DNA of 64,000 nucleotides from Verrucomicrobiota bacterium. GTDB lineage: Bacteria; Verrucomicrobiota; Verrucomicrobiia; Limisphaerales; UBA11358. Both the position numbers and the translations under genes were made by a program. The stretch spans positions 1,058-65,057 of the forward strand of contig JBEKXN010000013.1 of the NCBI GenBank assembly GCA_049511835.1. The letters are read 5' to 3'. Positions 8,288 through 63,341 of the stretch are shown here, piece after piece (position 1 is the stretch's first letter; each line of letters begins with the position of its first letter). Under the pieces are notes generated by a model that saw only the letters and a program-made list of their open reading frames with translations, did no database searches and had not been told where the DNA came from.

Positions 8288-8457
8288 TACCCAGACAGGC
8301 TGCAAATTGCCTTCGCCAATTTCGCGTCCTTTCCGCCTTCGCTTCCGTCTTCACTGCGTTGCGACGCGACCAGCCGCTTCGGCGCGACAAGCGCGCGGCG
8401 TCCAATAAATTTCCGCTTTAGCTTTCGCGCGCCGCAGCTTAACTTTCGCGCAGGCAA

Positions 8458-9933: not shown

Positions 9934-10023
9934 ACCACAAAACACACGAAAGACACAAAATCAAAATCCGTTTTTTTCTTTTTTCTTTTGCCCAGCGCGT
10001 AAATCATAAATCGTAAATCAAAA

Positions 10024-10680: not shown

Positions 10681-10720
10681 ACGCGCTTGCTGAATTTTCA
10701 ACAGTGAATACTTTTACAAC

Positions 10721-11053: not shown

Positions 11054-11106
11054 GTAGGGACGTCGCGCTGCGACGTCCGCGGACGGCCCGGCGGGCTATC
11101 CCTACC
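11054..11106. repeat. GGTAGGG…CCCTACC palindromic REP-like element
   Basis: ggtagggacgtcgcgctgcgacgtcc…ctatccctacc between convergent genes. The same end motifs occur at 14097..14201 and in clpB at 46689..46740. Confidence 0.7.
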
Positions 11107-11107
11107 G

Positions 11108-11749: not shown

Positions 11750-11915
11750 AAATGACTATGGAAATGACTAATTCCTAAACCATAATGACGAAAGAAGCCC
11801 GAAGCTCGAATAAGCAGACTGGCCAGCACATTGGTCATTTGGTCATTTGGAAATTCTTTAGTCATTCGGATTTAGGAATTAGTCATTCCGCCCAGCGGCA
11901 TGGCTCAGGAATTAG

Positions 11916-12566
11916 TCATTTCCCCGGCGCCAGCCGTTTACGGATTTCCGCCAGAATCAGGCCGCTCGTTTGTTCTGAAGTCATGCTCGAATTATTAATG
12001 ACCTTGGCGCCCAGCGCGATCATCAACGGCGCCGTTGCGCGCTGACTGTCGCGCTGGTCGCGCGCCGCGAGATTTTCCTGGATGCCATCGGCGGCGCGGC
12101 GGCGCGAGCGTTCCTCCAGTTTCGCGTCGAGATAAAATTTGAAATCGGTTTCGGGAAAAACATTCGTCCCGATGTCACGCCCCTCCATGACGAGATTGCC
12201 GAATTGGACGCACTCACGCTGGCGTTTGACCATCCATTTGCGCACCTGGGGAACCGCTGCGACGTGCGGCACGGCGGCGCTGGTTTCGGCGGTGCGGACC
12301 TCCCTTTCGGGATAATAACCGTCCACGAGCAGCCGCACGTGGCCATCCACACACACCAGAGACGTTTTCCATTTGCGGCACGCAGCGGCGACGGCCCTGG
12401 CGTTCTGCACGTCAATCCGGTGTTTCAGGCAATACCACGCCAGCGTGCGATACATCGCACCGGTGTCCACATAAACGTAGCCGAGCGCCCTGGCCACAAG
12501 CTTGGCGTTCGTGCTCTTGCCGCTGGCACTCGTGCCGTCAATGGCAATGATAATCGGTTGTTTCAT
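11916..12566 (-). CDS. cmk: cytidylate kinase
   Basis: IIAIDGTSASGKST P-loop and …DTGAMYR…. Confidence 0.95.
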   Translation of the reverse strand: MKQPIIIAIDGTSASGKSTNAKLVARALGYVYVDTGAMYRTLAWYCLKHRIDVQNARAVAAACRKWKTSLVCVDGHVRLLVDGYYPEREVRTAETSAAVPHVAAVPQVRKWMVKRQRECVQFGNLVMEGRDIGTNVFPETDFKFYLDAKLEERSRRRAADGIQENLAARDQRDSQRATAPLMIALGAKVINNSSMTSEQTSGLILAEIRKRLAPGK

Positions 12567-12575
12567 TAAATTTTC

Positions 12576-12646
12576 AATCGTTCTCGTGCTCGTCCTCGAA
12601 TTCCTTAAAGCCGATTACGAGAACGAGGAGGAGGACGAGGACGATT
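12576..12646. terminator. long hairpin between aroA and cmk (ctcgtcctcg family); possible terminator or attenuator
   Basis: aatcgttctcgtgctcgtcctcg … cgagaacgaggaggaggacgaggacgatt. A related hairpin lies at 16335..16418. Confidence 0.4.
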
Positions 12647-14047
12647 TTATTCCGCAAACAAATCCTCTTCCTTCAGCTTCCGCCCCGTCTTGGCATCCAG
12701 AATTGTCGCACCCAATCCTTTCGGCGGCGGCGCGGCCAGTTTCTGGAAAAAATTCGGAAACGTCTTTTTCACGCACGCGGGATTCTTGATTTTGATGCCG
12801 GGAACTTTCAATCCCAGAATTGCAAAACACATCGCCATGCGATGGTCATTGCAGGTTTCAATCTTCGCGCCGTGAAGTTTGGACGGATAAACCGTCAGCG
12901 TATCGCCTTCCTCAACGACTTTCGCGCCGCACTTGGTCAGTTCGGTCCGCAACGCCACCACGCGCTCGGTTTCCTGGACGCGCAGGCGGCCAAGGTCGGT
13001 AAAAAAGAATGGTTGCACTAATTTGAAAACTCCACACACAGCCCCTTTATCTGCGGCCAGAACGATTGCCGTCATGATGCTGTCGCCAAGTTGGGTTTCG
13101 CGCGAAATTTTTTCGGGAGGCGGGATGAAATGAGGAAAATCCGCATCAATTTGCCAACCGGATTTTGGCCAGTGTTTGACGCGCACAGGTGGATCACCAG
13201 AGCGAGCTTTGCTGACAGCGAATTCGATCCATTCGAATATAATTACATACCACGCCGCCGCCCAAAAATAACTTCCGCTGGACGCATCTGGCTCGATTTG
13301 AAATTTCCCGCCGTGATGAGGAAACACCTCGATCATCTTTGAAGTCATCGCCACATAAGGCGATTCCTCCGCGTTTTCCCCGACAACTTTCACTTCCCAG
13401 CCGCCGTGCTTTGCGCAGAGCAGCAGCGCCGACGCAAATTGCGAGCTTTCTTCGATGCTGACTTTTATTTTGCCTGTAGGAGACGACGTAAGGAGTCTCT
13501 GACTTTCTTTTTCAAATTGAGACTCGTCACCTCGTCTCCTACGGGGAGAACCATAAATCGTTGCCGGCAATTTATCATTCGGCGCATCCACGCGATAACC
13601 CAGCTCGCGCAATGCCAGGAACAACGCCGCCTGCGGGCGTTCGTGCATTCGCGGCACGCCGTGCAGCCGGAAAACACCCTTGCCCAGACAAACCAGCGCG
13701 GACAAAAACCGCGCCGCCGTGCCGGCGTTGCCCACGAACAGTTCCAAGGGATTTTCAATCGTGCCGCCGCCGGGAATTTTTCCACCCTGACCATAAACCG
13801 TGATGGTGCGATTGCATATTTCATCCGGGTCAGGCTTGACCTTGATTTGAAAACCCAATTTCTGAAGCGCCTCGACCATCACCTGCGTGTCCTCGCTCCA
13901 CAATGCGCCTTCAAGGGTCACTTCGCCGTCCGCCAGCGCCGCGAGGATGAGCGCGCGGTTGGTGATGCTTTTCGAGCCGGGCACGGTGATTTCCGCACGC
14001 ACCGGTTTGTCCAGCGGCACGATTTCGATGAGGTCGGGCAAGGCCAT
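12647..14047 (-). CDS. aroA: 3-phosphoshikimate 1-carboxyvinyltransferase (EPSP synthase)
   Basis: Start set at MALPDLIEIVPL (ATG at 14047), since the upstream ORF part is REP sequence. Motifs PGSKSITNRALILAAL and …NDHRMAM… are present. Carries an in-frame palindrome at 13473..13546. Confidence 0.93.
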   Translation of the reverse strand: MALPDLIEIVPLDKPVRAEITVPGSKSITNRALILAALADGEVTLEGALWSEDTQVMVEALQKLGFQIKVKPDPDEICNRTITVYGQGGKIPGGGTIENPLELFVGNAGTAARFLSALVCLGKGVFRLHGVPRMHERPQAALFLALRELGYRVDAPNDKLPATIYGSPRRRRGDESQFEKESQRLLTSSPTGKIKVSIEESSQFASALLLCAKHGGWEVKVVGENAEESPYVAMTSKMIEVFPHHGGKFQIEPDASSGSYFWAAAWYVIIFEWIEFAVSKARSGDPPVRVKHWPKSGWQIDADFPHFIPPPEKISRETQLGDSIMTAIVLAADKGAVCGVFKLVQPFFFTDLGRLRVQETERVVALRTELTKCGAKVVEEGDTLTVYPSKLHGAKIETCNDHRMAMCFAILGLKVPGIKIKNPACVKKTFPNFFQKLAAPPPKGLGATILDAKTGRKLKEEDLFAE

Positions 14048-14262: not shown

Positions 14263-15147
14263 TTACTCCGGTGACGGCGAGGCGCAGCCGGCACACCAGT
14301 TGTCGCGGCGTTTTTTGGCCGTTTCAAAAAACGTTGCGACGGCCTCCGCGTCGGCTTTTTTCAGCACGCGCCGGAATTTTTCCAAATCGGCGATGAAGGC
14401 ATCCAGCGACTTCGCCAGGTTCCGGCGATTGGCCAGGGCGATGTCGCGCCACATTTCGGGCGAGCCGGAGGCGATGCGCGTTGTGTCGCGAAAACCGTTC
14501 GCGCAAAGCGCGGCCTGATGTCTGGGCTGCGCCGGATTCAAAACATGGCTGGCCAAAGTCGCCGCGATGATGTGCGGCAAATGGCTCGACCGGCTCACGA
14601 GTGAGTCATGCATTTCCGGCGTCAATCGCAGCACGCGCGAACCCATCGCCCGCCAAAATTGTTCCACTCTTTTCAGCGCGGCCTGGTTTGTCTTTTTCGC
14701 CGGGGTCAGGACACAAACGGTGTTGACAAACAAATCCGCGCGCGCAGCGCTCACACCGGTTTTTTCCGCGCCGGCCATCGGATGGCTGCCGACAAAATGC
14801 GCGCCGGCTTTGGCCACCAGCGATTCGAGTTCGCGCACGACGCTGGCTTTGACGCTGCCGACATCGGTGACAATGGCGCCGCGCTTCAAGGCTGGAAGCA
14901 TTTCCCGGACGCGCGAACGCATTTGCGCGAGCGGTGTGCACAGGATGACGAGGTCGGCATCCCAAACCGCCGCCAGCAAATCGGTGGTGGCAAAATCCAC
15001 CGCCCCCGCCCTTTCACAGTCTTTCAGGCTGGCGCGACGGCGGACGAAGCCCGCGGTTTGGCGCGCGAGTTTCCGGCGTCGGACGGCCAGCCCGATGGAA
15101 CCTCCGAGCAGGCCGACGCCGATGATGGTGATCTTCCGGAAATGCAC
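14263..15147 (-). CDS. tyrA: prephenate dehydrogenase
   Basis: Rossmann start ITIIGVGLLGGSIGLA, …GSHPMAG…. Sits immediately upstream of aroA. Confidence 0.9.
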   Translation of the reverse strand: MHFRKITIIGVGLLGGSIGLAVRRRKLARQTAGFVRRRASLKDCERAGAVDFATTDLLAAVWDADLVILCTPLAQMRSRVREMLPALKRGAIVTDVGSVKASVVRELESLVAKAGAHFVGSHPMAGAEKTGVSAARADLFVNTVCVLTPAKKTNQAALKRVEQFWRAMGSRVLRLTPEMHDSLVSRSSHLPHIIAATLASHVLNPAQPRHQAALCANGFRDTTRIASGSPEMWRDIALANRRNLAKSLDAFIADLEKFRRVLKKADAEAVATFFETAKKRRDNWCAGCASPSPE

Positions 15148-18105: not shown

Positions 18106-19362
18106 TTAAGGCACCCACTGGGCGCGGTAGAACTGCAATGTGTCGGAAGCATCAATTGTAAAGTTGGTATTGGTGCTTGCCAGCGTGTTGGTCTGGATCG
18201 GCGTCCAGTTCACCAGGTCGGTCGAGGAATAGATGGCGTAGCTCACGTTGGTCTGGCCATTCAAGCAAAAGGTAAGGCTGGTGGGAGTTATCAACTCCGG
18301 GTTGCTGATGGCAAACGGCAGGACCGTTTTCGAGAGGATTACATTCCCGCCGTTGGGCACAACATCGAACATGACGTAATTGGTCGAACTGACGGTAACG
18401 AGTTGCGCGCTTACCGGGTTGTTGTTCTGTGAGATGGCGGCGGCCGGCCAACCGGTCGGCAGCGGCCGGCGCAGCGTGATTGGATAGTTATAAATCGAGT
18501 TAGTAAGACTATTGGTCACCTGAATGGTAATGCTATCCCCCGTGTTGGACGTCTCGGCAACCGATGACGCATTGCGCTCCTGGATGTAACGAACGACATT
18601 GCCGAACGTTTCCACCCAGAACAGGGCCTGGTTGGTGCTCATATAGTTGACGCTTGCCTGCAACGTCGAACTCGGAAGCGGTGAATAGCCGTTGTCATTA
18701 TCAATCGCATGAATCAGAAAGACGCACCATCCGTTCGAAGCGATGGCACTGTTGGCTGTGTTCGTAAAATCCTGGAGTGTCTGCACCGATCCATAGATAC
18801 CGCAAATGAACGAGCTTATTTGCATGAAATCCGAGGGGGTGCTTGGAACGATGTTTTGCGAGCAAATCCGCGCAGCGATGTAGTATCTCGCGGTATATGT
18901 TTCGTTGGGAACCGTGCAATCAGGATAGGCCAAAGTGACGCATTGCTGATTGGTTACGTTCGCGTTAATGGCACTTCGAGAATTACTCAGTTCGCTTATC
19001 AACTGCCCGGTATTCAACGTGGTAAGGTCAAGATGGTCAACAGTATGGCTGCCGATTTCGTCTCCATACGATGCGGCGGTTTGCACTGGTGTCCATGACC
19101 TCCCGGGAAGCCAGCTCGCGGTCGTAACGGTGAACAGCGTCAGTTTGAAACCATTGGTGTGGAACATCGGGACCGCAATGGCATATTGATTCGGACAATC
19201 GTCATCGAACGTATAGGAAATCGCCGCCGGCCGGAATCCCTCCCACGTTCCTATTTCGTATGGAGCGGCAACTGAACCGGCCAGGCTGACCGAGGTGGTC
19301 AACGCCATGCTCAGAGCAACGGTAACTTCTATTTTCGATAAGCGTTTCGGATTGAAAATCAT
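18106..19362 (-). CDS. secreted polysaccharide deacetylase (NodB) family protein with C-terminal FYR module
   Basis: YTFDDDCPNQY and GSHTVDH motifs, a signal peptide, and a C-terminus …LQFYRAQWVP. Confidence 0.8.
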   Translation of the reverse strand: MIFNPKRLSKIEVTVALSMALTTSVSLAGSVAAPYEIGTWEGFRPAAISYTFDDDCPNQYAIAVPMFHTNGFKLTLFTVTTASWLPGRSWTPVQTAASYGDEIGSHTVDHLDLTTLNTGQLISELSNSRSAINANVTNQQCVTLAYPDCTVPNETYTARYYIAARICSQNIVPSTPSDFMQISSFICGIYGSVQTLQDFTNTANSAIASNGWCVFLIHAIDNDNGYSPLPSSTLQASVNYMSTNQALFWVETFGNVVRYIQERNASSVAETSNTGDSITIQVTNSLTNSIYNYPITLRRPLPTGWPAAAISQNNNPVSAQLVTVSSTNYVMFDVVPNGGNVILSKTVLPFAISNPELITPTSLTFCLNGQTNVSYAIYSSTDLVNWTPIQTNTLASTNTNFTIDASDTLQFYRAQWVP

Positions 19363-20365: not shown

Positions 20366-21907
20366 TTAAGGGTTCCCCCCCGTTATGCTCGTCCGGTAAA
20401 ACTGCATCGAGCCCGGCGCGTTGGTGTCAATAAATTGAATCAACCCCGTCCCGTCCGCCGCCACCGGCCCCGACACATCGCTCCAAGGCCCAGTCACCGC
20501 CGGTGCCGACTGGATGATGTAATTCCGCCCCGGGACCCCCGCAAACTCCAACTGACAATTCGTCGGCGTCAACTGCAGCGATATCATATTCAGCGTCTGC
20601 GCCCCACTGGCCGCCACCGTCACCACCACCGTGCCCGGCGCCGAGCCGCCGTACCCATCGCTCAACGTGTAGCTGAAAGCGTCCTGCCCGCTGTAGCCTC
20701 CCGGCGGCGTATAGGTAACCAGATTCCCATCCCACGAAACCGTGCCCCCCTGCGTGCTGTCGCTGCTCACCCCCGTCACGGCCAACGCGTATCCCATGTT
20801 GTCGCTGGATCCCGCCAGCAGCTTGACCCCCGGCATGCTCACCGCCTGGTCTTGCACCGTGCCCAGCGCCTGTGTAGCCGCCACCACCACGATCCCAGTC
20901 GACATTATTACGTTGCCGCCGTTGGGCACCACGTCGAACATGAGGAAATTGGTCGAGCTGACGGTAACGAGTTGCGCGCTTATGGGCTGATTATTCTGTG
21001 AAACAACGGCGGCCGGCCAACCGGTCGGCAGCGGCCGGCGCAGCGTGATTGGATAGTTATAAATCGAGTTATTGAGACTATTGGTCACCTGAATGGTAAT
21101 GCTATTCCCCGTGTTGGACGTCTCGGCAACCGATGACGCATTGCGCTCCTTTATGTAACGAACGACGTTGCCGAACGTTTCCACCCAGAATTTGGCCGGG
21201 TTGGCTTTCATGTAGTTGACGCTGGCCAGCAACACTGTGCTCGACAGCGGCGAATAGCCGTTGTCATTATCAATCGCATGAATCAGAAAGACGCACCATT
21301 GACTTGCCGTTGTGGCACTATTCGCCTCGTTATTAAAATTCGCAGAAGTTTGTATTGTTCCCTGCGAACCGCAGATAAACGAACTGATACTCATGAAATC
21401 GCCGGGCGTGCTGGAAACCAATGCACCCGAGCAGATTCGCGCGGCAATATAGTATTGCGAGGTGATCGTTTCGTTGGGAAGCGTGCAATAAGGATAGGCC
21501 AAAGTAAGACATTCCTGATTAGTTACGTTCGCGTTAATGGTACTTTGAGAACTACTCAGTTCGTTTGTCAGTTGCACCGCTGACACCACGGTAAGGTCGA
21601 CATGCGTCACGGTATGGCTGGCGATTTCATCACCCCATGCCGCGGCCTGCTGCACCTGCGACCACGATATATCATGGCCAAAAGCAATTTCGGGGTCTGT
21701 AACCGTGCACAGCGTCAGTTTGAAACCATTGGTGTGGAACATCGGGACCGCAATGGCATACTGATTCGGACAATCGTCATCGAACGTATAGGAAACCGCT
21801 GCTTTTCGGAATCCCTCCCACGTTCCGATCTGGTACGGAGCGGCAACCGATCCGGCCAGGCTGACCGAAGCGGTCAATGCCGTAATTAAGAAAAACCCAA
21901 CTCCCAT
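20366..21907 (-). CDS. secreted polysaccharide deacetylase paralogue with an extra Ig/cadherin-like domain and FYR module
   Basis: Same NodB motifs as 18106..19362, plus …DAFSYTLSDGYGGSAPGTVVVTV…. Ends …MQFYRTSITGGNP. Start set at MGVGFFLITAL. Confidence 0.8.
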   Translation of the reverse strand: MGVGFFLITALTASVSLAGSVAAPYQIGTWEGFRKAAVSYTFDDDCPNQYAIAVPMFHTNGFKLTLCTVTDPEIAFGHDISWSQVQQAAAWGDEIASHTVTHVDLTVVSAVQLTNELSSSQSTINANVTNQECLTLAYPYCTLPNETITSQYYIAARICSGALVSSTPGDFMSISSFICGSQGTIQTSANFNNEANSATTASQWCVFLIHAIDNDNGYSPLSSTVLLASVNYMKANPAKFWVETFGNVVRYIKERNASSVAETSNTGNSITIQVTNSLNNSIYNYPITLRRPLPTGWPAAVVSQNNQPISAQLVTVSSTNFLMFDVVPNGGNVIMSTGIVVVAATQALGTVQDQAVSMPGVKLLAGSSDNMGYALAVTGVSSDSTQGGTVSWDGNLVTYTPPGGYSGQDAFSYTLSDGYGGSAPGTVVVTVAASGAQTLNMISLQLTPTNCQLEFAGVPGRNYIIQSAPAVTGPWSDVSGPVAADGTGLIQFIDTNAPGSMQFYRTSITGGNP

Positions 21908-22369
21908 TTTCAATAACGTACATTCCCGATTGGTTTTTTGGGGGGAAGGTGCTACCGGCAACATATTCATATCGATATCGGCTTGCATGATAAGCCTTGC
22001 GGGTGTTGAGGTCAAGCGAAAAGCCTGGTGAAAACCGAAGGAATTAATAGCGATTTTGATGCGGAATTTCCGGGAAGCGATAGCGGTGGTTTATCAGACG
22101 CGAATATGGTTTGGGTCGTCGCTGCCGGCTGTCTCAAGAGCTGGCGACGCTGCCGTGTGAAACGGAAAATCGGTATATCCCTTGGCCCCCGGCGCCGATC
22201 AGACCTTCGTGTCGACGGGCGGATTAATCAAGCTGGACACGAAAGGCAGGGCGTGTCACTCCCGTGCGCGCCGGCTTCTATACCGCGAATCACGTTGAAC
22301 CCGCGAAACGAATTGGCGGCAAAAAAAGCAGCAGCCGACGTGAGGAGGCGCTTCCGGCGCGCGCTGTGA

Positions 22370-25096
22370 TTACGGCGCGAAGGTGCGATAGAACCGTTGT
22401 CCGCTGTTCGTCGCCTGCGGATCGGTGAACTGGAATTGGCCGGGTGAAGTTTCCAAGACCCCACCCAGCGCCGTCCACTGGCTCAACGGCAACACCAGAT
22501 TCGTGGTCGTCAGCACGCCGAACAATGCTCCCACACTGTTCGTGAACGCAAACTGGAACCCATTGGTCAGTTTTTGCTGACCCGTCAGGGTGGGCGTGGT
22601 CGGGACCGGAACGCTGATATTGACGACGCTGCTGGTGCTTTGGATGCCGTTGACGAACACGGTGGCCAGCGCCCAACCGGGCGGGAAATTCCAAACCGGC
22701 AATGATGTGAATGAATTCGTGGACCAGTTCGTCGTCAGCAGGAAAACGGTCTGTTCGTTTCCGAGGCTGCGCAATTGCACCAGCGGATAATCGGTGGACG
22801 AATCCTGAGAATTGCCGCTTGAACCCCCGGAGACGCCGCGGAACTGCGCGCCAGTGATGACCAAATTGTCGCCAAGATTCAGCGGCAAGGTGAGTGAAGC
22901 TATCTGCGGCTGCCAGGAATTGGTGAAGCCCAAGCCGACATCATATAGTTCGGCACTGTCGATCTCACTGTCGATCGAATTGCCACTCGCTACAAGTATC
23001 CTGCCATCAGACAGCAACGTTGCCGTGTGATCATGGCGTGCAACGTTGAGGGAACCGTTCGTTGTCCAGGTCCCGCCGGCTGGATCGTACAATTCGGTGC
23101 TGGCCAGAACGTTTTCGTCATTGTCGCGGCCGGCCGCGACCAGCACCTTGCCGTTGGGGAGCAACGTTGCCGTGTGACCATATCGTGCAGTGGTTAACGA
23201 GCCGGTCGTCGTCCATGTTCCGCTGACAGGATCGTACAGCTCCGCTCTGGAAAGAAGGCTGTTGGTGCCCAAGCCCCCGGTAATCAGCACCTTGCCATTC
23301 GGCAGCAACGTCGCCGTGTGGGATGCACGCCGCGTGTTCAGCGCCCCGGTTGTTGTCCAGGTTCCGCTTGCCGGGTCGTACAGCTCGGCATTGACGGGAG
23401 CGCCTTGGCCCATGTTACCAGACCCCCCCGCGACGAGCACTTTGCCATTGGGCAGCAACGTCGCCGTGTGACCAGTGCGTGCGTTGTTCATGGGGCCGGT
23501 GGCTGTCCAGGTTCCGCTTATCGGGTCATACAGCTCGGCGGAGTTCAGGACGCCCTTGAAAAACATGCCTCCCGCGATCAGCACCTTGCCATTGGGCAGC
23601 AACGTCGCCGTGTGACCAGCGCGCCTTTCGAGCGGCGAGCCGGTCGTTGAAAAGATTCCGGCGGTTGGATCATACAGTTCGGCAACGGCAAGATCGGAGA
23701 TGTAGGATGTCGCGACTACCAGCACCTTGCCATTGGACAGCAACGTTGCCGTATGGCCATTATGGTATGTATTGAACGAACCCGTGTTTGTCCAGGTTCC
23801 GCTTGCCGGGTCATACAATTCGGCGCTTAAGAGCATACTCATGCCGCTACTATCCCAGCCCCCCGCGACCAGCACTTGCCCATTGGGGAGCAATGTGGCC
23901 GTGTGACCCTCACGCGCGGTGTTCAGCGCGCCGGTGTTCGTCCACGTTCCGGTGGCCGGATTGATGGTCGGGTCGTAAATCTCCGTGCTGGAAAGATAGA
24001 CAAAGTTGGTGGTAACGCCTCCCACGACCAGCACTTGCCCGCCGGGCAATAACGTTGCGGTGTGGGATCTACGGGCGAAGGTCAGCGTATTGGTGGCAGT
24101 CCATGTGCCGCTGATTGGATTATACAATTCCGCGTTGGAAAGATAGCCGCTGTTGCCAAATCCACCCGCGATCAACAACCACCCGCTTGGCAGCAGCGTT
24201 GCTGTGTGTTCATTGCGTGCGGTGTTCAACGAGCCAGTCGGCGTCCAAGTTCCAGAGGTAGAATCGAACAGTTCCGCACTGGAAAGATGATCGTCGGAAC
24301 CGCTATCACCACCCGCGACCAATACCTTTCCGTTGGGCAACAAAGTAGCCGTATGATAGAAGCGCGGGCTGGTCAGTGAATTCGTGGCTGTCCAGATTTC
24401 GGAAGTCGGGTCAAAAAGCTCTGCGCTGGCAAGTGAACCGGTATTATTACAGCCTCCCGCGGCCAGTATCTTGCCGTCGAGCAATAAAGTGGCCGTGTGA
24501 AGAGCCCGGCCAACGTTGAGGTTGTTGGTGATTATCCGCCACGTTCCCGTGTCTGGGTCATAAATTTCCGTACTATCAAGATAGGCCGTACCGTGAAGGG
24601 TATCCTCGTAGTAACCACCGGTGACGAGCACCTTGCCATCTACTAGCAACGTTGCCGTATGAATACAGCGCTGGGCGTGCATTGCACCCGTCCCCGTCCA
24701 AGTTCCGGTGGCAGGATCGTACAGTTCTGCGCTGGCAAGATAGCTGTGGCTGGGTGGTTTGCCAGTCACGCCTCCGGCTACCAGTACCTTACCGTTGCGC
24801 AGCAAGGTAGCCGTGTGCTCAAAGCGCGCGGTGATAAGCGGGCCGGTCACGGCCCAGGTTCTGGTTGCCGGATCATACAGTTCCGCAGTGTTGGTGGCGG
24901 CGCCATTGATTTGACCACCCGCGACCAACACCTTGCCATTGGACAGCAAGGTCACCGTATGAAACACACGTCCGATGGCCATCGGGCTGTTGGTAACCCA
25001 GGAAGCGGCACGGGCCGGTTGGTTGATGCTGAGGTTAAGCGCCAGCGCGGACAGCGCCAGTGCGAGCGGGAGAATGTTGTGGTGTCGAGTTTTCAT
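22370..25096 (-). CDS. secreted Kelch-repeat protein (14 blades) with C-terminal FYR module
   Basis: Fourteen HTATLLPNGKVLVAGG-type units each followed by AELYDP..GTWT. Signal peptide MKTRHHNILPLALALSALA. Ends …QRFYRTFAP. Confidence 0.9.
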   Translation of the reverse strand: MKTRHHNILPLALALSALALNLSINQPARAASWVTNSPMAIGRVFHTVTLLSNGKVLVAGGQINGAATNTAELYDPATRTWAVTGPLITARFEHTATLLRNGKVLVAGGVTGKPPSHSYLASAELYDPATGTWTGTGAMHAQRCIHTATLLVDGKVLVTGGYYEDTLHGTAYLDSTEIYDPDTGTWRIITNNLNVGRALHTATLLLDGKILAAGGCNNTGSLASAELFDPTSEIWTATNSLTSPRFYHTATLLPNGKVLVAGGDSGSDDHLSSAELFDSTSGTWTPTGSLNTARNEHTATLLPSGWLLIAGGFGNSGYLSNAELYNPISGTWTATNTLTFARRSHTATLLPGGQVLVVGGVTTNFVYLSSTEIYDPTINPATGTWTNTGALNTAREGHTATLLPNGQVLVAGGWDSSGMSMLLSAELYDPASGTWTNTGSFNTYHNGHTATLLSNGKVLVVATSYISDLAVAELYDPTAGIFSTTGSPLERRAGHTATLLPNGKVLIAGGMFFKGVLNSAELYDPISGTWTATGPMNNARTGHTATLLPNGKVLVAGGSGNMGQGAPVNAELYDPASGTWTTTGALNTRRASHTATLLPNGKVLITGGLGTNSLLSRAELYDPVSGTWTTTGSLTTARYGHTATLLPNGKVLVAAGRDNDENVLASTELYDPAGGTWTTNGSLNVARHDHTATLLSDGRILVASGNSIDSEIDSAELYDVGLGFTNSWQPQIASLTLPLNLGDNLVITGAQFRGVSGGSSGNSQDSSTDYPLVQLRSLGNEQTVFLLTTNWSTNSFTSLPVWNFPPGWALATVFVNGIQSTSSVVNISVPVPTTPTLTGQQKLTNGFQFAFTNSVGALFGVLTTTNLVLPLSQWTALGGVLETSPGQFQFTDPQATNSGQRFYRTFAP

Positions 25097-25334
25097 AGGG
25101 CGGCTTGTGCCGAATGCGGAATGCGTTTCGATCCGAGAGCAAACTGAATCTGCGAACGCCCTCATACATTGGTCATGGTAACTGCCGGCGGCATAAAAAT
25201 CACGTCAAATGATGTTTGATGACAATGATATTAGGCAGGCCGTTGCTCGAAATTATTTGAAATAATGGCGGCGGTCTGCCGACGCGCCGCTACGCTGTCT
25301 CCGGCTTGCCGCGCCGGAGCATTGCGAAGGCGGG

Positions 25335-46313: not shown

Positions 46314-48959
<2,646 letters not shown>

Positions 48960-49117
48960 GGCTAATCAAATAAACCGAATGCGCGGCACGTCAAGTCTGG
49001 GAAATTTCAACCACGGCTTGTCGCGCCGCAGCCTCGGCGAAGGCGGAATGGACACGGCGTAAAGCCGCGTGGCGGCCATGCCGCTATACGCGGACGAACC
49101 GGGGTTTTTGCAAGGAA

Positions 49118-49257
49118 GCGCCGTCAGGCGCGGCATATTTGTAGAATCCCGCATAAAACAAATTCAAGCTCCAGCGGAGCGACATCAAAAATATGCCGCT
49201 CCTGACGGAGCTTTCTTATTTTGACTGATGAACTACAAAGATGCCGCGCCTACGGCG
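49118..49257. repeat. MITE-like palindromic element, copy 2
   Basis: gcgccgtcaggcgcggcat … atgccgcgcctacggcg termini. Same internal hairpin as 7657..7811. Confidence 0.75.
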
Positions 49258-49306
49258 TTTTCCTTTGCGCCTTTGCGTTAATCCGATTTTCGTTTAGTTT
49301 TCGCGC

Positions 49307-49370: not shown

Positions 49371-50651
49371 ATGGCTTCTGCGGACTTGGCATTTCCCCCG
49401 CCTGAAAATATCCTCGGCACCATGTACCGGGTCAGCAGCCCATCCTCCTTGGCAAACACAACGTCAAAAGGGCGATTCCCCGTCTGCATCGTCGCCTGCA
49501 TGGGTTTGATTGTGCTCGGCGCGAGCCCAATCGTTTTCTCATGGCACCCGGCACCCACGTATGTCTTTTTCCATGAACATCCCGGATGGCAGATGGCGGG
49601 CCGCGTTTTGCTCACCGTCGTAATCGCCGGGGCGCTGCTTATGACCAGCCGGCTGGACCCGGAGCAGGGAGCGGGAAAAGCAATCCGTTATTGCGGCTTT
49701 GTTCTGCTGGCGGCGTTGTTGACCGATTTGCACTTCCATACGGTGGACATTCACAAAATTCCCTGGCAAATCGACAAGTACAATCAAATCCTCCTGCACA
49801 CCTGCACGCCTCCGGACCAATACCGGTTTCTGCCCCAAGGGACGTTGTGGTGGATGGCGCTGGGCAACGGCGATTTTTTGTTTTCATACCTGGCCTACCG
49901 GTTCCTTTTCACGTTCCTGGTGTGCCGGTTCGGCTACACCTTCGCGCGGTTGTTTCTGGCCCCGCGGGACGCGGTCATCGTCGTGTTGCTCTACGCCGCG
50001 TTCTACCCGCTGTCCACGCGCTACTACAACGGCAATTTGTTAGACCCGATGTCGCATGCCGTGATGCTGGCCGCGTTCACTTGCTGCCAGCGCCGGCAAT
50101 TCCGGCAGGTGTTTTGGCTGTTCGTGCTGGGCATGTTCATCAAGGAGACGATGCTGCTGATCGTTCCCTGTTATTACCTGATGAACAGCGAAACATTCCG
50201 CTTGCGGGATTTCGGCACCCTCTGGCGACTGGCTCTGCTTGCCGTCGCAGGTTTGGGTGTGTTTCTGGCCTGCAGGATTCCATTTCATTTCAATTACGAC
50301 TTCAATACCTTGAACGGAACGAACGAACTGATGGTGTATAGCAATCTCGGTCTTGCCCGGGGTCAGGCCCAGAGCGTGGTTTCCGTTTTCCAACGCTATT
50401 TGCATCCAATGCTTTTTATCTTCATGTGGCTGCCGCTTATTGTTTGGCGGCGGAAAATGCTGCCGCACTCCTTGTTCTGGACGGCCTTGTATCTCGCGGC
50501 TGCCTTCTATCTCACGAATCTCTGCTTCGGCTGGAATTATGAATCCAGAAACTTTGTCCCGGCCCTGATCTTCCTGTTGGTATGCACCATGATGATCGTG
50601 AATCGCTTGATCGAAGCGAGTGCACCCGGCACCAGCACGGCAGAACCTTGA
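49371..50651 (+). CDS. polytopic membrane protein (possibly GT-C-like glycosyltransferase)
   Basis: At least 10 hydrophobic segments. No firm motif; functional call is weak. An alternative start lies at 49422. Confidence 0.6.
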   Translation: MASADLAFPPPENILGTMYRVSSPSSLANTTSKGRFPVCIVACMGLIVLGASPIVFSWHPAPTYVFFHEHPGWQMAGRVLLTVVIAGALLMTSRLDPEQGAGKAIRYCGFVLLAALLTDLHFHTVDIHKIPWQIDKYNQILLHTCTPPDQYRFLPQGTLWWMALGNGDFLFSYLAYRFLFTFLVCRFGYTFARLFLAPRDAVIVVLLYAAFYPLSTRYYNGNLLDPMSHAVMLAAFTCCQRRQFRQVFWLFVLGMFIKETMLLIVPCYYLMNSETFRLRDFGTLWRLALLAVAGLGVFLACRIPFHFNYDFNTLNGTNELMVYSNLGLARGQAQSVVSVFQRYLHPMLFIFMWLPLIVWRRKMLPHSLFWTALYLAAAFYLTNLCFGWNYESRNFVPALIFLLVCTMMIVNRLIEASAPGTSTAEP

Positions 50652-50689: not shown

Positions 50690-50772
50690 GCCTGGTGGGG
50701 CAGTTTGCGCGTAATGCGTTGCGCCTCCGACAGTGCCTCCTGCGATTTGAGGGTCAATTTCTCCGTTTGCAT
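50690..50772 (-). pseudogene. truncated duplicate of the clpB 5' end
   Basis: [27 protein letters not shown]… compared with clp[28 protein letters not shown]. Confidence 0.8.
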
Positions 50773-50929
50773 ATCCTGTGGCGTCGAATCGAACGCCGAG
50801 ACGCAAAGACGCGAAATTTCAACCACGGCTTGTCGCGCCGTAGCCTCGGCGAAGGCGGAATGGACACGGCGTAAAGCCGCGTGGCGGCCATGCCGCTATA
50901 CGCGGACGAACCGGGGTTTTTGCAAGGAA

Positions 50930-51070
50930 GCGCCGTCAGGCGCGGCATATTTGTAGAATCCCGCATAAAACAAATTCAAGCTCCAGCGGAGCGACATCAA
51001 AAATATGCCGCTCCTGACGGAGCTTTCTTATTTTGACTGATGAACTACAAAGATGCCGCGCCTACGGCGC
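50930..51070. repeat. MITE-like palindromic element, copy 3
   Basis: Virtually identical to 49118..49257. Confidence 0.75.
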
Positions 51071-51181
51071 TTTCCTTTGTGTCTTGCCCTTATCCGTGTT
51101 TATCCGTGTCCATCCGTGGTTAAAAAACTCTCCGCGTCTTTGCGGCTTTGCGTGAAACAATTTTTCATTTAGTTTGCCCGC

Positions 51182-59501: not shown

Positions 59502-59690
59502 TGCCGGAACCCAGGCGTAGCATCACCCCCACAGTCTGAAATCAGGAAAATGGGCATGAAAACGATTGGTCTTCCGGGCAAACATTTGTTTAACAATCGG
59601 CCCTCGGCTACCTGCTCGCGCGCAGCGGAGTTGATCATTGGCTGTTCGCCGAAGGCGCCGCCGCAGGCGTCGCAGGCGTTCATTGCCACT
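59502..59690 (+). repeat. direct repeat upstream of the Myb-like gene (copy 1)
   Basis: Core ggcgtagcatc.cc…tctgaaatcaggaaaatgggcatgaaaacgat..gtcttccggg.aaacatt is shared with 60453..60607. Confidence 0.7.
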
Positions 59691-59708: not shown

Positions 59709-60410
59709 ATGAAAACTGAATTTGCCCGGAGACGCTGGACGGTCGAGGAAGAGCATTTGCTGGGAACCAAATCTGATCGCGCCCTCGCTAGAAAATTTGG
59801 CCGCACCACCACTGCGGTTGCCGCCCGACGCCATCTCAAGCACATCAGCCTGATCAAAAAGTGGAAGCCGGAGGATGACAAACTCCTCGGCAGCCGGCCG
59901 GATGCGCAGGTGGCCCTGTTGCTTAAACGTCCTCGTTACCAAGTGGCCTATCGGCGACGCCAGCTTGGCATCTTATTCAAGCATCCCGATTATCACTCCT
60001 GGAAACACGGCGAGATTGCCATGCTGGGCTGGCGACCGGATCGCAAAGTAGCCGAGTTGACCGGACGCACCGTCAAAAACGTGCGTCACAAACGCCTGAA
60101 ACTCGGCATCCCCTTCTTTAATCCCGAATTCCGTCCGTGGACGCGCGAAGAAGACAAGTTGCTGGGCAACATGCCAGACGCCGAAGTGGTCTGGCGGATA
60201 AAGCGAACCATCGTGGCCATTCGCAAACGCCGTCTTCGCCTGGGGATTCCCAATCCCGTCCCCGCGCGTCATGTTTGGACGCAGCAACAAATCGCCCTGC
60301 TCGGCACCATGCCCGACCGGAAATTGGCCGAACAAATTCGCTGCCCGGACTATGTGGTGACATTCAAGCGCCGGTCATTGAAAATCCCCGCTTGGTGTCG
60401 GCGGCAATAA
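59709..60410 (+). CDS. protein of five tandem Myb/SANT-like helix-turn-helix repeats
   Basis: Five units of about 45 aa with the pattern W-(T/K)-x-E-(E/D)-x-LLG-x-x-(P/S)D…(R/K)RxxLGI. Confidence 0.75.
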   Translation: MKTEFARRRWTVEEEHLLGTKSDRALARKFGRTTTAVAARRHLKHISLIKKWKPEDDKLLGSRPDAQVALLLKRPRYQVAYRRRQLGILFKHPDYHSWKHGEIAMLGWRPDRKVAELTGRTVKNVRHKRLKLGIPFFNPEFRPWTREEDKLLGNMPDAEVVWRIKRTIVAIRKRRLRLGIPNPVPARHVWTQQQIALLGTMPDRKLAEQIRCPDYVVTFKRRSLKIPAWCRRQ

Positions 60411-60452: not shown

Positions 60453-60607
60453 TGCCGGGCGTAGCATCGCCTTACAATCTGAAATCAGGAAAATGGGCAT
60501 GAAAACGATCAGTCTTCCGGGTAAACATTCGTTTTTCAATTGGCGATTGGTCATTGGTCATCGGCTATTCGCCAGAGGCGCAGCCGCAGGCGTTGTTGGC
60601 AATCGCC
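60453..60607 (+). repeat. direct repeat upstream of the cas12b-like region (copy 2)
   Basis: See 59502..59690. Confidence 0.7.
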
Positions 60608-60687
60608 CGCCTTAATTCTCAACACTCAACTCCATGTCGCGTCGAAACAACGTGAAGACGGATCAACTCTCAACTTCAATAAGACAA

Positions 60688-60818
60688 TGAACCGAATCTA
60701 TCAGGGCAAAGTAACTGCCGTTGAAATCCCCGACGGCAAAGACGAACAAGGCAAACCACTCGATCTGGACGTTCTCTGGCAGCACCACGAATTATTTCAG
60801 GACGCGGTGAATTATTGA
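60688..60818 (+). pseudogene. orphan Cas12b-like N-terminal fragment (43 codons, then stop)
   Basis: MNRIYQGKVTAVEI…LWQHHELFQDAVNY* mirrors the N-terminal strand plus helix of the next gene (…LRDTHMIFQDAVCYN…) and of Cas12b enzymes (…LW..H….N.GV.YY). Confidence 0.55.
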
Positions 60819-60831: not shown

Positions 60832-63341
60832 ATGGCTAACGAACTTTATAGAACTTACGAAGTGCTCGTCGAAGAAAGCGTCCACACCGACCATCCCAAA
60901 AGGGCAACTGATAAAACCAAAAAGCCGTCGGTGTTCAATGCGGAAATTGACGGCGCGTTGCGGGACACTCACATGATTTTTCAAGATGCCGTGTGCTACA
61001 ACACGCTTTGCTTTGCTGGATTGGCTGGATTGGAGGTTCACCAAAGCGGAGAGCGCGAGGGCGAGTTGTTAACCGGCGCATGGAGCAGCGTGGATGCGCT
61101 GTGGTGTCCGCCGCTGGTTCTCGCTGGGGAGGAAAATCCCACAGACGCGACCAAACCGCGCGCGGGAAAAGAAAAAAAGAAATTGAGCGACCAGGCAGAA
61201 GTTAGCTTTTCCTTAATCGCGTCACCCTTGCCAGATGATTACTGGAATACGATAGCGGATGTGCCTTCACCAATGCAGGCCGAGCCAGTTCACCTTACCG
61301 TGTCATTTAAGATTGAGGGCGATGAAATAGCAAAGTTGCGCGCAGAGACAAAACAGTGGCTGTCCGGGTCACATCGTGGCTTTGCCAAAAAAGGTGAGAA
61401 AGACGCTGACAAACGCCGCCACTTTAATTGGCCGATTGACCGTGAAACGAGCAAATACGATTCAGGTGAATTGAACGAGAAAGCAAAAGTGCTTTGGTGT
61501 GGAAGCGGCAAGGCTGGTGACGAATGGAAAGGTTTTGCTCTGCGCCATGACAAAATAGCGTCTAGCAGCAAAAATGCCGTCTATTACGACTCCGACTTCC
61601 ACATTCTTTCCATTGACCTTGGGAATCGTTTTGCTGCCGCGTTTGCCCGGCTGCGAATCCATGCAGAACCGAATGGCGATGGACGCATCATTTCCGCCGA
61701 TGGATTCTCACCTGTCATCAAGGCAGACATCGTTCGGCAAGGAACGCTACGCTTGCAAGGAGAGAACGCGAAAGTCTGGCAGCATGTGCGGGAGGCGGAT
61801 GGAACGTGCAAAAAGGACTCGACCGAGAATTACGTTTATGTGCTAGAAGATGAAGAATATGGCAATCAGGGGCGCGGACGATTTCCCAAGGATGACGAAT
61901 ACAGCAAGTTTTCAAAACTCGCCGGGCAGTTAGCACCTGTTGAATCGTTATCCTTGAGCGGAAAAGAAAAAGAAACATATCCTGAACTTGCCGACCACTT
62001 GGTTTTCCGGCTCAAGCGGCGGATTGGCAGGCTTCGCACGTTGCTCAATCTTGTGTGGCGGCTTTGCGCGAAGCACGAACGGAATCAGCGCACTGGACAG
62101 CAAGGCAAGGAACGTGAAGAGTCGGACAGGCTGTTTCACCGGCGAATGACGGTTGAAACTTTGGCGCGCTCGTTAATCAGACCTCCACGTCAACTCGATG
62201 AAACAGAAGATCCCAAAGATTCAAGTCTTCGAGCGGTTCTCGCCGCCGATGAACACTGGGAAAAGCTGAAAGACGATGGATTACTGAAAAGCACGAAAGG
62301 CGCGGATGAAAAGAATCGCTGTCAGAAGCTAGAGGCGATGTTGAAAAGCGACACCGCTTGGAATTGGAATGCACTCGCAGAAGCGGTCAAAAAACAGATT
62401 GAGGAATACATGGAAGGCGTGCCGGGTGACGACGAGCGGCAACCGCTCGACAAACTGCTTGTCAAAGTGATTGAGTTTTGCCTGCCGCTGCGCGGTCGGC
62501 ATTGGGGCTGGAATCGTTCAAGCAAAGCCCGCCTCCATTGGGATAATAAAGACGACGAACACACGCCGCACATCATGGGAATGCGCGGACTTTCGATGAA
62601 GCGACTGGAACAAATCTCGAATCTCCGCCAGCGATGCCAAAGTTTTGCCAAGCTGGAGGATCGCTATCACGGCTCATTCAAGGCCAAGAACTACAACCCG
62701 CCAGAGACATCAAAAAGCTGGCGGCTGACTTCGAAGCTAACAAAACCTACACGGGCAAACTGGTGTTGGCTGTCGAAGGCGGAACGGATTTCGTGCCTGT
62801 TCTCGCGCCTCTCGGTGGGAAGGATACTTTCAATGCAGACATCACCGCAGCAGCGAACATCGGCTTGCGCGCAGTCGCGGACCCGCAACGTTGGGATATT
62901 TTTCCGCGCTTGCGCACGAAAAGGAAATCGGAAACCAAAGTCTCGGCAACGAATTGGCGCGGCTGGTTCGCTTCGTTTGAAAAGGAGGATGATAGACGTG
63001 TCCTGCTCGCTGCTGCTGACAAAACCGTGACACAAACTGCTGCCAATGAGATGCCCTCAAAAAAGAAAACAAAGAAAACCATCGCTAGCAGCGGAGGCAA
63101 TGATGCTGAAACAGCATCCAGTCAATCATCCGAATTCCCTCCCTTTTTTGTCGAACACCCAAAACATGATTGGTTGTTTGAAAATGACTGGCTCAAAAAA
63201 GAAGCCTTCAAGTTTAAGCAAGGCGACAAAGAACTTTTCGCATATCCCCAAGGTCGTTACCTGAAGCGGGTGGAGCAAGTTTGCTCTGAACGCATCAAGG
63301 CAATCAACCATGACCGCATCAATAAACCACCAAAGGCTTAA
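60832..63341 (+). pseudogene. cas12b: Cas12b (C2c1)-like type V effector, domain-reduced and frameshifted at an A5 run near 62712
   Basis: RuvC-I HILSIDLGNRFAAAFA (Asp codon 61615-61617), bridge helix LVFRLKRRIGRLRTLLNLVWRL, lid MRGLSMKRLEQISNLRQ. After a shift from the reading frame of 60832 to that of 62634: KKLAADF, LVLAVEGG (Glu codon 62775-62777), RuvC-III FNADITAAANIGLRAV (Asp codon 62838-62840) and a Cas12b-like tail FFVEHPKHDWLFENDWLKKEAF. Lies directly upstream of cas4. Confidence 0.8.

Follow-up and report, generated by a model that had tools for sequence, protein, structure and literature searches.

The window analysed here, a 64,000-nt stretch of DNA, carries towards its end a Cas12b homologue spread over two overlapping reading frames at positions 60832-63341; the features described here that fall inside the window lie on the + strand. 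ORF1 (60832-63030, 732 aa) holds the 5' part of the gene and ORF2 (62634-63341, 235 aa, start ATG at 62634) is read in another frame, the two giving 836 aa when merged. An uninterrupted cas12b ORF is absent, the frame changing at 62705/62706, and the same structure is present in four assemblies. A sequence-only reading of this DNA had taken the two ORFs to be jointly a Cas12b homologue, and profile searches bear this out, as each of them matched a single NCBIfam model, NF033949 (Cas12b): residues 187-609 of ORF1 align to profile positions 588-901 (E 1e-24, 86.8 bits) and residues 30-191 of ORF2 to positions 1084-1237 (E 9e-13, 47.3 bits). Cas12b homology is thus certain for both ORFs, while their scores, which lie below the curated cut-off of 150 bits for this profile of length 1253, put the match below equivalog level. 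A family match in Pfam was found for neither ORF.

We used orthologous loci from related genomes to establish what a complete copy of the gene contains. In Verrucomicrobiota metagenome-assembled genomes (MAGs), an intact orthologue is encoded by one ORF of 1,584-1,720 aa. Such an ORF is present in 9 of the 13 species-level MAG loci found by genome search and also in a metagenome locus (L024/L025). The size of the window gene should therefore be judged against this clade, and not against the 1,129-aa Alicyclobacillus enzyme with which it had been compared. Against these orthologues the window gene resolves into three remnants separated by two deletions. The N-terminal remnant (60832-61071, 80 codons) comprises OBD strand 1 and the first helix of helical-I, and is placed both by protein alignment and by 91.5% nucleotide identity to positions 486-790 of one relative (L006). 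It ends at the deletion-1 junction (61069-61072, TTA/ACC), where about 1,986 nt have been lost in frame. When measured against L010, whose full-length gene spans 6843-11906, the loss is 662 codons, window position 61068 corresponding to L010 7097 and window position 61072 to L010 9087, and it appears in the window protein as a gap of about 662 codons between 'GELL' and 'TGAWSSVDALW'. Using the domain map of PMC12204704 to set the domain limits, the segment lost through deletion 1 is helical-I/REC1 plus the first part of OBD-II, including a GFGSADFF motif that aligns to residues 322-356 of AacCas12b and to residues 448-531, in helical-I, of ChCas12b.

The middle remnant (61072-62705) is in frame with the start codon and runs from the C-terminal part of the OBD through RuvC-I, the bridge helix and helical-II to the lid; its Arg-rich bridge helix (HLVFRLKRRIGRLR) begins at 61996 and its lid ('GMRGLSMKRLEQ') at 62578, and across 61594-62705 it shares 95.1% nucleotide identity with L005. 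Here the second deletion intervenes, the alignments of five orthologues all stopping at 62705. Measured against L005 the deletion is 538 nt and against L011 it is 523 nt; both lengths are 3n+1, and deletion 2 is therefore the frameshift itself. Of the two in-frame deletions and additional frameshift that had been proposed, then, the first deletion is indeed in frame, but the second is not and needs no separate frameshifting event. ORF1 continues past the junction (62705-62706) as 108 non-homologous codons (62706-63030) and then stops, while the 3' remnant (62706-63341) lies in the -1 frame and encodes the remainder of Nuc, a 'VEGG' strand, RuvC-III and the C-terminal part of Nuc. This remnant is likewise placed by protein alignment, and is 89.2% identical in nucleotides to L005 2675-3370. 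What is missing between the two, judged from the orthologues, is the peptide 'DPIARE...VIVLENLERY...TSHFDSRTG...KLAE', comprising the end of helical-II, the whole of RuvC-II with its catalytic Glu, and the first half of Nuc.

A search of the PDB with the merged 836-aa protein matched nothing relevant. Because the most conserved segment of Cas12b is the one that has been deleted, a clade profile and the orthologues were used for alignment to solved structures instead. AacCas12b (Alicyclobacillus acidoterrestris C2c1; PDB 5U30/5U31/5U33/5U34 and 5WQE) resembles the clade only weakly outside the RuvC-II/Nuc region, although D570, E848 and D977, its catalytic residues, all align with the clade profile. 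Among solved structures the nearest is that of ChCas12b, a large Cas12b1-type V-B effector of 1,496 aa from Candidatus Hydrogenedentes (PDB 9KLN/9KLO/9KLP/9KLQ; PMC12204704). The window copy shares with it, in the same order, the RuvC-I DLG, an Arg-rich bridge helix inside helical-II, the 'GLS..RL' lid, a 'GG..F' strand and the RuvC-III motif 'NAD.NAA.NIGLRA', but lacks helical-I, the first OBD part, the end of helical-II, RuvC-II and the first half of Nuc, and is frameshifted. The intact orthologues differ from ChCas12b in the other direction, being larger and preceded by a small ORF that copies their N-terminus; large and 'expanded' Cas12b clades are known to reach 1,888 aa (PMC10691335).

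These alignments settle the fate of the catalytic residues, all three of which had been thought to persist. Two were correctly located: the RuvC-I Asp is residue 262 (SIDLGNRFAAA; codon 61615-61617), aligning to AacCas12b D570 and ChCas12b D767, and the RuvC-III Asp (NADITAAANIG; codon 62838-62840) aligns to AacCas12b D977 and ChCas12b D1364, catalytic residues that were established by experiment in both enzymes. The latter is kept in the DNA but in the -1 frame relative to ORF1, and so is not part of the polypeptide that carries RuvC-I. The third was misidentified. The Glu at 62775 (..VLAVEGG..) aligns to a non-catalytic strand of ChCas12b ('VPVPGGEVF'), whereas the true RuvC-II Glu is the E of VIVLENLERY in the orthologues, which aligns to AacCas12b E848 and ChCas12b E1220 and falls within deletion 2. 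Intact orthologues carry both motifs, VIVLENLERY lying about 150 residues upstream of the 'VEGG'-type motif. In ChCas12b the E1220A substitution leaves cleavage undetectable (PMC12204704). Any Cas12b encoded by the window gene is thus shown to lack both a REC1 lobe and part of its RuvC site.

Could the deletions and the frameshift be artefacts of assembling or sequencing a full-length gene? Repeat collapse does occur in metagenome assemblies, and in the relative L005 a frameshift of one base may stem from long-read error. However, the deleted allele occurs in four independent assemblies, each from a different sample (JGI 3300038428, JGI 3300043295, ENA ERZ27249722 and SRR13021940) and together covering the three sources JGI, ENA and Logan, with an identical 732-aa ORF and 0-2 mismatches over 3.5-8.3 kb, and there are no internal repeats beside the junctions that could cause a collapse. 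We consider the frameshift genuine, and give an artefact almost no credence. Since the four assemblies are at least 99.97% identical, they represent one strain. A tandem or circular arrangement of L003 and L004, suggested by gene lists, was rejected, their alignment being collinear with the window. Outside this strain the junctions were found in none of the roughly 25 other loci compared, so that no diverged lineage shares the deletions, and both missing segments are still carried by L005 (95% nucleotide identity) and L006 (91%). Other relatives are also disrupted, through different and independent lesions of the same locus.

The sequence-only reading had weighed a decaying gene against a natural, nuclease-impaired mini-effector that shares an adaptation module, by the logic of Cas12k and Cas12m; such an effector would still bind guide RNA and DNA. 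Cas12k, from CAST systems, and Cas12m are type V effectors that are naturally nuclease-deficient or impaired. Their ORFs are intact and conserved, and the proteins have a complete fold and work with defined partners. The window gene resembles them in that it belongs to the Cas12 family, has an incomplete RuvC site and adjoins CRISPR components. In favour of a mini-effector, its RuvC-I, bridge helix, helical-II, lid and RuvC-III motifs are all recognisable, the adjoining adaptation genes, array and tracrRNA-like block are intact, and dN/dS along its lineage is low. Yet it is the frameshifted remnant of a single strain, with relatives at 91-95% identity undeleted. The 3n+1 length of deletion 2 puts its halves in different frames, helical-I is missing, and with the Glu-bearing RuvC-II strand and helix gone the RNase H fold is incomplete and not merely inactive. 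An AlphaFold2 model of the real ORF1 product points the same way, with a mean pLDDT of 56.8 and confident prediction of helical-II and the bridge helix only; the OBD and RuvC-I parts are at low confidence, and the tail (residues 627-732, pLDDT about 21-29) is disordered. When the model was compared with known structures by Foldseek, the only significant matches were to ChCas12b (E about 2e-5, TM about 0.25). We regard a natural mini-effector as very improbable.

A small V-B effector would in any case not be the novelty that had been suggested, since Cas12b2/V-B2 has already been described: these are effectors of about 700-800 aa, mostly from Planctomycetota and some with a Cas1-Cas4 fusion and Cas2, whose small size is natural, the proteins being intact and placed on a deep branch of their own (PMC10691335). 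The window gene is similar in length when merged and has the same kind of adaptation module. However, it belongs to a giant Cas12b clade and owes its shortness to two deletions of recent date, of which the second breaks the frame; both the published description of V-B2 (PMC10691335) and the giant relatives at 91-95% identity would set it apart.

Another way to examine whether the shortened gene retains a function is through selection on its codons. Branch-specific dN/dS for the window lineage was 0.16-0.23 in every segment, and 0.05 for cas4/cas1; with 20-30 substitutions per segment the test does not date the inactivation, nor does dN/dS alone separate recent death from ongoing selection. A value of about 0.2 would fit selection on a shortened protein, but dN/dS is equally low past the frameshift, in sequence on which selection for a fused mini-effector could not act. 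From the purifying selection still visible in the surviving codons we infer that inactivation was recent.

A further possibility is that ORF1 and ORF2 cooperate, either as two polypeptides or as a fusion through -1 slippage, in some residual role other than cleavage; crRNA processing, regulation or support of adaptation would be examples. Each frame stays open over hundreds of codons, ORF2 has its own ATG, and an A-rich run just past the junction (CAAAAAG, 62711-62717) could permit the -1 slippage that fuses the frames. Against this, the run owes its existence to one synonymous AAG to AAA difference from L005, the fused product would still be without helical-I, RuvC-II and half of Nuc, and the arrangement is found in no other lineage. 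We consider such cooperation highly unlikely.

The rest of the locus is that of a large Cas12b operon, with a cas4/cas1 fusion, cas2, an array of 36-nt repeats and a tracrRNA-like anti-repeat. The cas4 reported 5 nt downstream of the cas12b stop is the 5' end of a cas4/cas1 fusion, a gene arrangement so far reported in type V-B systems only (PMC10691335). Its start is at 63347 and it runs past the window end at 64000, the part inside the window matching Pfam Cas_Cas4 (E 1e-18) and NCBIfam cas4g_cas1g (E 5e-58). On the source contig the full fusion is 604 aa, equal in length to those of L005, L007 and L012, with Cas_Cas4, PDDEXK_1 and Cas_Cas1 domains. Looking beyond the window for adaptation genes and an array, as had been advised, revealed a 96-aa Cas2 and, 2.6 kb past the window end, a CRISPR array (L001 15766-16367) in which eight spacers of 34-36 nt alternate with nine identical repeats, each of 36 nt. 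A 23S-rRNA-IVP-family gene is also part of the locus. The candidate tracrRNA contains a putative anti-repeat (L001 15539-15558) that is complementary at 18 of 20 positions, G:U pairs included, to repeat positions 12-31, and lies inside a non-coding block conserved in four loci, in one of which Cas12b is about 31% identical. Scanning the locus against Rfam produced no known tracrRNA family, just sub-threshold miRNA-type matches on a hairpin after the array, and no Tn7-like genes occur among the genes listed around the cas12b remnant. The type V-B locus thus appears otherwise structurally intact and may be expressed. The eight spacers matched nothing in 73 kb of the contig save one 15-nt island, a match of spacer 4 to a junction that may be due to chance. 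Within that stretch there is accordingly no support for effector loss through autoimmunity, although a target may exist elsewhere in the genome.

Taken together, we conclude that the window gene is very probably a recently broken giant Cas12b of about 1,700 residues, an ordinary pseudogene within an otherwise intact CRISPR locus. The decaying-gene reading is favoured, in that close relatives are full length and the allele is confined to one strain. The presence of full-length orthologues and of deletions unique to this copy, together with the lack of an array, had been named as what would reduce the gene to an ordinary pseudogene; the orthologues are full length and this copy alone carries the deletions, but an array is present. 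On this account the locus is a type V-B CRISPR-Cas system of a chromosomal Verrucomicrobiota lineage, whose normal effector is a giant Cas12b of 1,584-1,720 aa. Deletion 1 took away helical-I/REC1 and the start of the OBD, the parts that recognise the PAM and hold the guide:target duplex. Deletion 2 took away the RuvC-II Glu and half of Nuc and shifted the frame, as a result of which RuvC-III and the C-terminus are not translated in frame with the 5' part. Interference by the locus would thereby be lost. With its other parts structurally intact and perhaps expressed, spacer uptake could go on without defence. Some observations sit less easily with a pseudogene: an intact adaptation module and nine identical repeats are unusual in an old dead locus, and ORF1 and ORF2 are long open frames that may be expressed. 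A second effector using the array may also exist elsewhere in the genome, the analysis covering 80 kb of it. On a weaker reading, the fact that effectors in this clade have been lost repeatedly and independently while the adaptation modules stayed could reflect selection, as an escape from autoimmunity or cost, and not random decay.

Overlooked in the sequence-only reading was a second Cas12b-type N-terminus, encoded by a separate small ORF immediately upstream (60687-60818; 43 codons, MNRIYQGKVTAVEI...LWQHHELFQDAVNY, followed by TGA). This copy is intact, and 13 nt separate its end from the start codon of cas12b. Its product is paralogous to the N-terminal strand and helix of Cas12b but stands alone: hhalign against the N-terminus of the main ORF gave 95.6% probability, and members of the family match NF033949 positions 1-22. 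The family is kept in 14 of 16 orthologous loci, with synonymous third-position variation and a pN/pS of 0.17; all 65 of its database relatives are 44-94 aa long, and it precedes giant cas12b genes in at least three phyla. Neither Pfam nor NCBIfam has a family for the protein, a PDB search with its profile gave no match at E <=10, and it was not met in a literature search that was aimed at other subjects.

That the small ORF ('MNRIYQG') is a strain-specific relic of a second cas12b was rejected, given its conservation across phyla with synonymous variation. Obligatory readthrough or frameshifting from the small ORF into cas12b was rejected as well: its stop codon varies (TGA, TAA or TAG), among 17 loci, of which 15 had their frame computed and two (L022 and L026) were judged by gene coordinates, six or more are out of frame, including L017 with its intact effector, and L012 and L013 have no small ORF at all. 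Tentatively, at a little under even odds, the giant-Cas12b V-B systems, this locus among them, encode a separately translated protein of 45-90 aa under purifying selection that duplicates the N-terminal OBD strand and first helix of the effector. With similar reserve, we propose that this protein may serve Cas12b as a regulator or accessory subunit, so far undescribed, for instance by complementing a strand of the OBD/REC1 interface or competing with part of it, or that it may be a coupling ORF required for effector expression.

The gene that first drew attention is thus one more decaying CRISPR effector, of little weight in itself, and it should neither be counted as a new compact Cas12 nor mined as an editing scaffold. 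It is nevertheless an example of how a single 3n+1 deletion can mimic domain reduction plus a frameshift, and of how a non-catalytic Glu can be mistaken for that of RuvC-II from sequence alone, and the several close relatives that have lost different parts of the same locus form a small natural series on V-B inactivation. Any novelty of the locus would lie in the small upstream protein, not the broken effector, and this small ORF may affect the expression or assembly of large Cas12b effectors.

The feature flagged by the sequence-only reading is real and correctly located, and we conclude that it represents a cas12b pseudogene of the ordinary kind, inactivated recently. The original description of the sequence was essentially right. 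Two ORFs (ORF1, 60832..63030, 732 aa; ORF2, 62634..63341, 235 aa) overlap, each in its own frame, and the next gene follows 5 nt after the stop. Neither ORF matches Pfam, and the NCBIfam Cas12b family NF033949 is the sole family match for both: residues 187-609 of ORF1 align with profile positions 588-901 (E 1e-24) and residues 30-191 of ORF2 with positions 1084-1237 (E 9e-13), both scores being under the 150-bit cut-off and positions 1-587 and 902-1083 finding no match in either ORF. Merged, the gene encodes 836 aa, about half the normal size. An identical 732-aa ORF1 occurs in four assemblies (two JGI assemblies and one each from ENA and Logan) that are collinear with the window at 99.97-100% identity, thus the frameshift and the short gene are real; all four represent one strain. 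The window corresponds to positions 1616-65615 within an 80,351-nt contig, and its other genes are housekeeping genes (DnaG, ClpB, RpoD, EPSP synthase).

A protein search returned 19 relatives and a genome scan 13 loci in Verrucomicrobiota and Brocadia MAGs, the relatives being from Verrucomicrobiota MAGs. Where cas12b is intact, it forms one ORF of about 1,595-1,720 aa (1,584 aa in the relative L024), and the effector is intact in nine genome loci as well as in L024/L025; the 1,330-1,380-aa proteins of the protein search are mostly cut by contig ends. Compared with the related locus L010, where the alignment passes from 7097 to 9087 at window 61068-61072, a first deletion removed a net 1,986 nt (662 codons) in frame. 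The whole missing block is present in L006 (91.5% identical over the N-terminus) and its 3' end in L005, and the junction shows microhomology of no more than 1-3 nt. The block holds a GFGSADFF..LCEP motif, aligned to residues 322-356 of AacCas12b and 448-531 of ChCas12b, two structurally solved enzymes, as well as the segments KPISYTWPG and LTLAARRLKRD, both conserved. Judged by the domain map of ChCas12b, in which helical-I spans 19-551 and the OBD 1-18 plus 552-716 (PMC12204704), this deletion took all of helical-I/REC1 past the first helix together with the first part of OBD-II.

The second deletion lies at window 62705, where every one of the alignments to L005, L009, L010, L011 and L012 ends. 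Missing here are 538 nt relative to L005 (95.1% identical upstream of the junction and 89.2% downstream) and 523 nt relative to L011; both lengths are 3n+1, thus one deletion explains both the domain loss and the change of frame. With it went a peptide from DPIARE to KLAE that includes VIVLENLERY and TSHFDSRTGLPGVR. In alignment to the solved structures, the E of VIVLENLERY pairs with AacCas12b E848 (LILLEELSEY) and ChCas12b E1220 (VIIENLEHY), which are established RuvC-II residues, cleavage by ChCas12b E1220A being undetectable (PMC12204704). The glutamate at 62775 that had been proposed as RuvC-II is non-catalytic; its stretch (..LVLAVEGGTDFVPV..) is found in all intact orthologues too and aligns to ChCas12b VPVPGGEVFVS. 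The other two proposed catalytic residues, RuvC-I D262 and the RuvC-III Asp at 62838, are true equivalents of D767/D570 and D1364/D977 of ChCas12b/AacCas12b, but the Asp at 62838 is in a different frame from D262. Directly after the junction lies a CAAAAAG run (62711-62717), resulting from a synonymous AAG-to-AAA difference with L005, on which -1 slippage would in principle join both cas12b frames.

Another way to view the short gene was as a miniature V-B effector, new for the V-B lineage. We ran AlphaFold2 on the actual ORF1 product with an alignment of 17 sequences, obtaining a model (mean pLDDT 56.8, pTM 0.48) that was confident only at residues about 350-620 (helical-II and bridge helix), with pLDDT mostly <50 in the N-terminal third (OBD remnant and RuvC-I) and near 25 in the out-of-frame tail. 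Foldseek of this model against the PDB was significant only for four ChCas12b entries (E 2e-5 to 6e-5, TM 0.22-0.27), and the predicted fold agrees with the sequence in showing Cas12b parts rather than a new compact fold. We assign the locus to type V-B by gene content and homology, and by most defining tests the effector in the window is not a functional Cas12b. Naturally small effectors (about 700-800 aa) have already been described as Cas12b2/V-B2, a deep separate branch with Cas1-Cas4 and Cas2 (PMC10691335), and that published description sets the window gene apart as a non-member. Cas12b clades of about 1,500 aa (large) and of up to 1,888 aa (expanded) are also described in PMC10691335, and we place the intact relatives of the window gene there. 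Since small V-B effectors are known and the window gene is not one, the claim of novelty falls, and the mini-effector reading is not supported.

The competing proposal of a decaying gene held up, in that full-length orthologues exist and the window's deletion junctions are not found in the decaying relatives L005, L006, L007, L009, L011 and L014. Among close relatives the same V-B locus has suffered independent losses that affect different parts. In L007 the REC deletion (9520-10100) differs from that of the window, is out of frame and joins an N-terminal 185-aa ORF to 'WPIDKETSKF', with RuvC-II, cas4/cas1 and cas2 all intact, and in L006 (2900-3100) cas12b breaks at codon ~790 straight into a terminal CRISPR repeat and post-array hairpin, its 3' half being lost along with the adaptation genes and most of the array. 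The gene is frameshifted into 590-aa and 1,169-aa frames in L011 (3768-8905) and truncated in L014 (6999-10154), where cas4/cas1, cas2 and the array are all absent downstream; L009 keeps its effector intact, but its cas4/cas1 survives just as a fragment joined to cas2 (12286-12742), and the one-base frameshift in L005 may be a long-read error. We then placed substitutions on the window branch by parsimony, with L005 taken as the sister lineage and the outgroup made up of L008, L010 and L012, giving dN/dS of 0.23 before RuvC-I, 0.16 from RuvC-I to the lid, 0.23 downstream of the frameshift and 0.05 in cas4/cas1. Because the segment past the frameshift is not selectable within a fused protein, its low dN/dS suggests that the branch was mostly spent as an intact gene and that inactivation was recent, although with small counts (20-30 changes per segment) this is supportive, not decisive.

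The next gene, read earlier as cas4, begins at 63347 and is the start of a Cas4/Cas1 fusion. Past the window end, Cas1, Cas2 and a CRISPR array were found on the source contig, the order after the effector being the 604-aa Cas4/Cas1 fusion, a 177-aa 23S-rRNA-IVP-family protein, a 96-aa Cas2, a 313-nt region and the array, with nine identical 36-nt repeats (GCTTCAGTCGGCGCGAATTCAGGAATCGTGAGGCGG) and eight spacers of 34-36 nt. The 23S_rRNA_IVP (four-helix-bundle) gene between cas4/cas1 and cas2 (14515-15048 of the source-contig record L001, past the window end; L005 5292-5828) is absent in L007, L012 and L024, where cas2 comes directly. Between cas2 and the array lies a non-coding block (L001 15495-15640, window-equivalent 66326-66471, past the window end; L005 ~6255-6400) that is kept in four loci, one at only about 31% Cas12b identity. 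It holds an anti-repeat, TTTGAAATCGCG, complementary to the array repeat, as well as GC-rich hairpins, has no Rfam family match, and is a plausible candidate tracrRNA. An inverted repeat (L001 16361-16464, past the window end; 33-nt arms, 91% complementary) begins in the array's last repeat and trailing sequence, gives only sub-threshold miRNA-like Rfam matches, and may be a terminator or array end-structure; an analogous hairpin follows a lone terminal repeat in L006 (2985-3095). Spacer 4 (L001 16015-16049) matches window 61062-61076, across the first deletion junction, exactly over 15 nt (CGAGTTGTTAACCGG, minus strand). By chance, about 0.02 matches of this kind would be expected in the whole contig, and the flanks show no further similarity; though its position is striking, the match is probably coincidence.

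Elsewhere in the window, a 233-aa ORF (59709-60410) made up of Myb/SANT-like 'W..EE..LLG..PD..VA...RR..LGI' repeats, which has no significant Pfam match, lies between the two copies of a direct repeat of about 150-165 nt (59511-59677 and 60455-60600; 81-89% identity, with an indel). Close after the second copy comes a small cas12b-associated ORF, and in L012 the cas12b gene is directly preceded by a fragment that resembles the 5' end of the 233-aa ORF. A duplication of about 400 nt (48878-49280 and 50691-51092, 88-98% identity), which takes in the first ~80 nt of clpB (46314-48959, minus strand) as well as sequence upstream of that gene, flanks a 426-aa ORF (49371-50651) without a Pfam match; a 40-nt hairpin-containing element from it also occurs at 7739-7778. 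The 141-159-nt tandem repeats at 22370-25165 (minus strand) are ordinary, as they encode the Kelch repeats in a beta-propeller protein of 930 aa, and the neighbouring polysaccharide-deacetylase genes (18106-19362 and 20366-22015, minus strand; blocks 18330-19306 and 20899-21881 75-90% identical) are a local gene duplication.

The small ORF (60687-60818, 43 codons, MNRIYQGKVTAVEI..LWQHHELFQDAVNY and a stop), which the sequence-only reading did not mention, lies 13 nt upstream of the cas12b start and is intact despite the dead effector. It duplicates the strand-plus-helix module of the Cas12b N-terminus, of which the main gene keeps its own copy (M.NELYRTYEVLVEES...ALRDTHMIFQDAVCY). Profile-profile comparison of the small ORF with the main ORF N-terminus gave 95.6% probability (E 1e-8), and 22 of 39 small-ORF members match NF033949 positions 1-22; neither Pfam nor NCBIfam has a separate family for it, and the PDB gives no match. 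With the consensus MNRIYQG[RK]V...LW.HH.LFQDAV, it is conserved across phyla and is found in 14 of the 16 orthologous loci with a visible 5' end, including loci at about 31-39% effector identity; its positions in relatives include L006 351-530, L010 6687-6830, L011 3603-3767, L024 8001-8225, L022 8001-8198 and L026 4778-4948. Codon variation in its two conserved blocks is almost only synonymous across loci, pN/pS is 0.17 (pS 0.69), and there is no conservation whatever upstream of the ATG. This spread, the synonymous variation and the pN/pS rule out a local relic. The variable loop takes in-frame repeat-like insertions (ILSASNGERTEVRCRN, AESDETPLS) with the C-terminal block kept. Insertions resembling translated repeat elements (..ILSASNGERTEVRCRNQ.. 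and ..AESDETPLS..), with the frame into that block maintained, are carried by the small-ORF relatives P0070, P0074, P0078, L006 351-530 and L018 6441-6833, and by P0022, P0024, P0046 and P0050.

A database search with the small ORF gave 65 relatives, all 44-94 aa, with source names including Verrucomicrobia, Nitrospirae, Deltaproteobacteria and Ca. Edwardsbacteria, and in the three distant loci examined it lies 10-26 nt upstream of an 'ELYRTYEV'-type large cas12b. One match, P0042, has no stop and reads on into the contig end, thus some Cas12b probably have this N-terminus in contiguous form. In nine of 14 genome and window loci, and in L024, the small ORF shares the frame of the main ORF, with a single stop between, and it is out of frame in five of the 14 and in L022 and L026. 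Since the frames differ and the stop codons vary among loci, obligatory recoding that joins it to cas12b is unlikely. We infer a translated, conserved small protein that would derive from an old tandem duplication of the cas12b 5' end. The broken effector itself is of low interest; it is this conserved small ORF that deserves follow-up.
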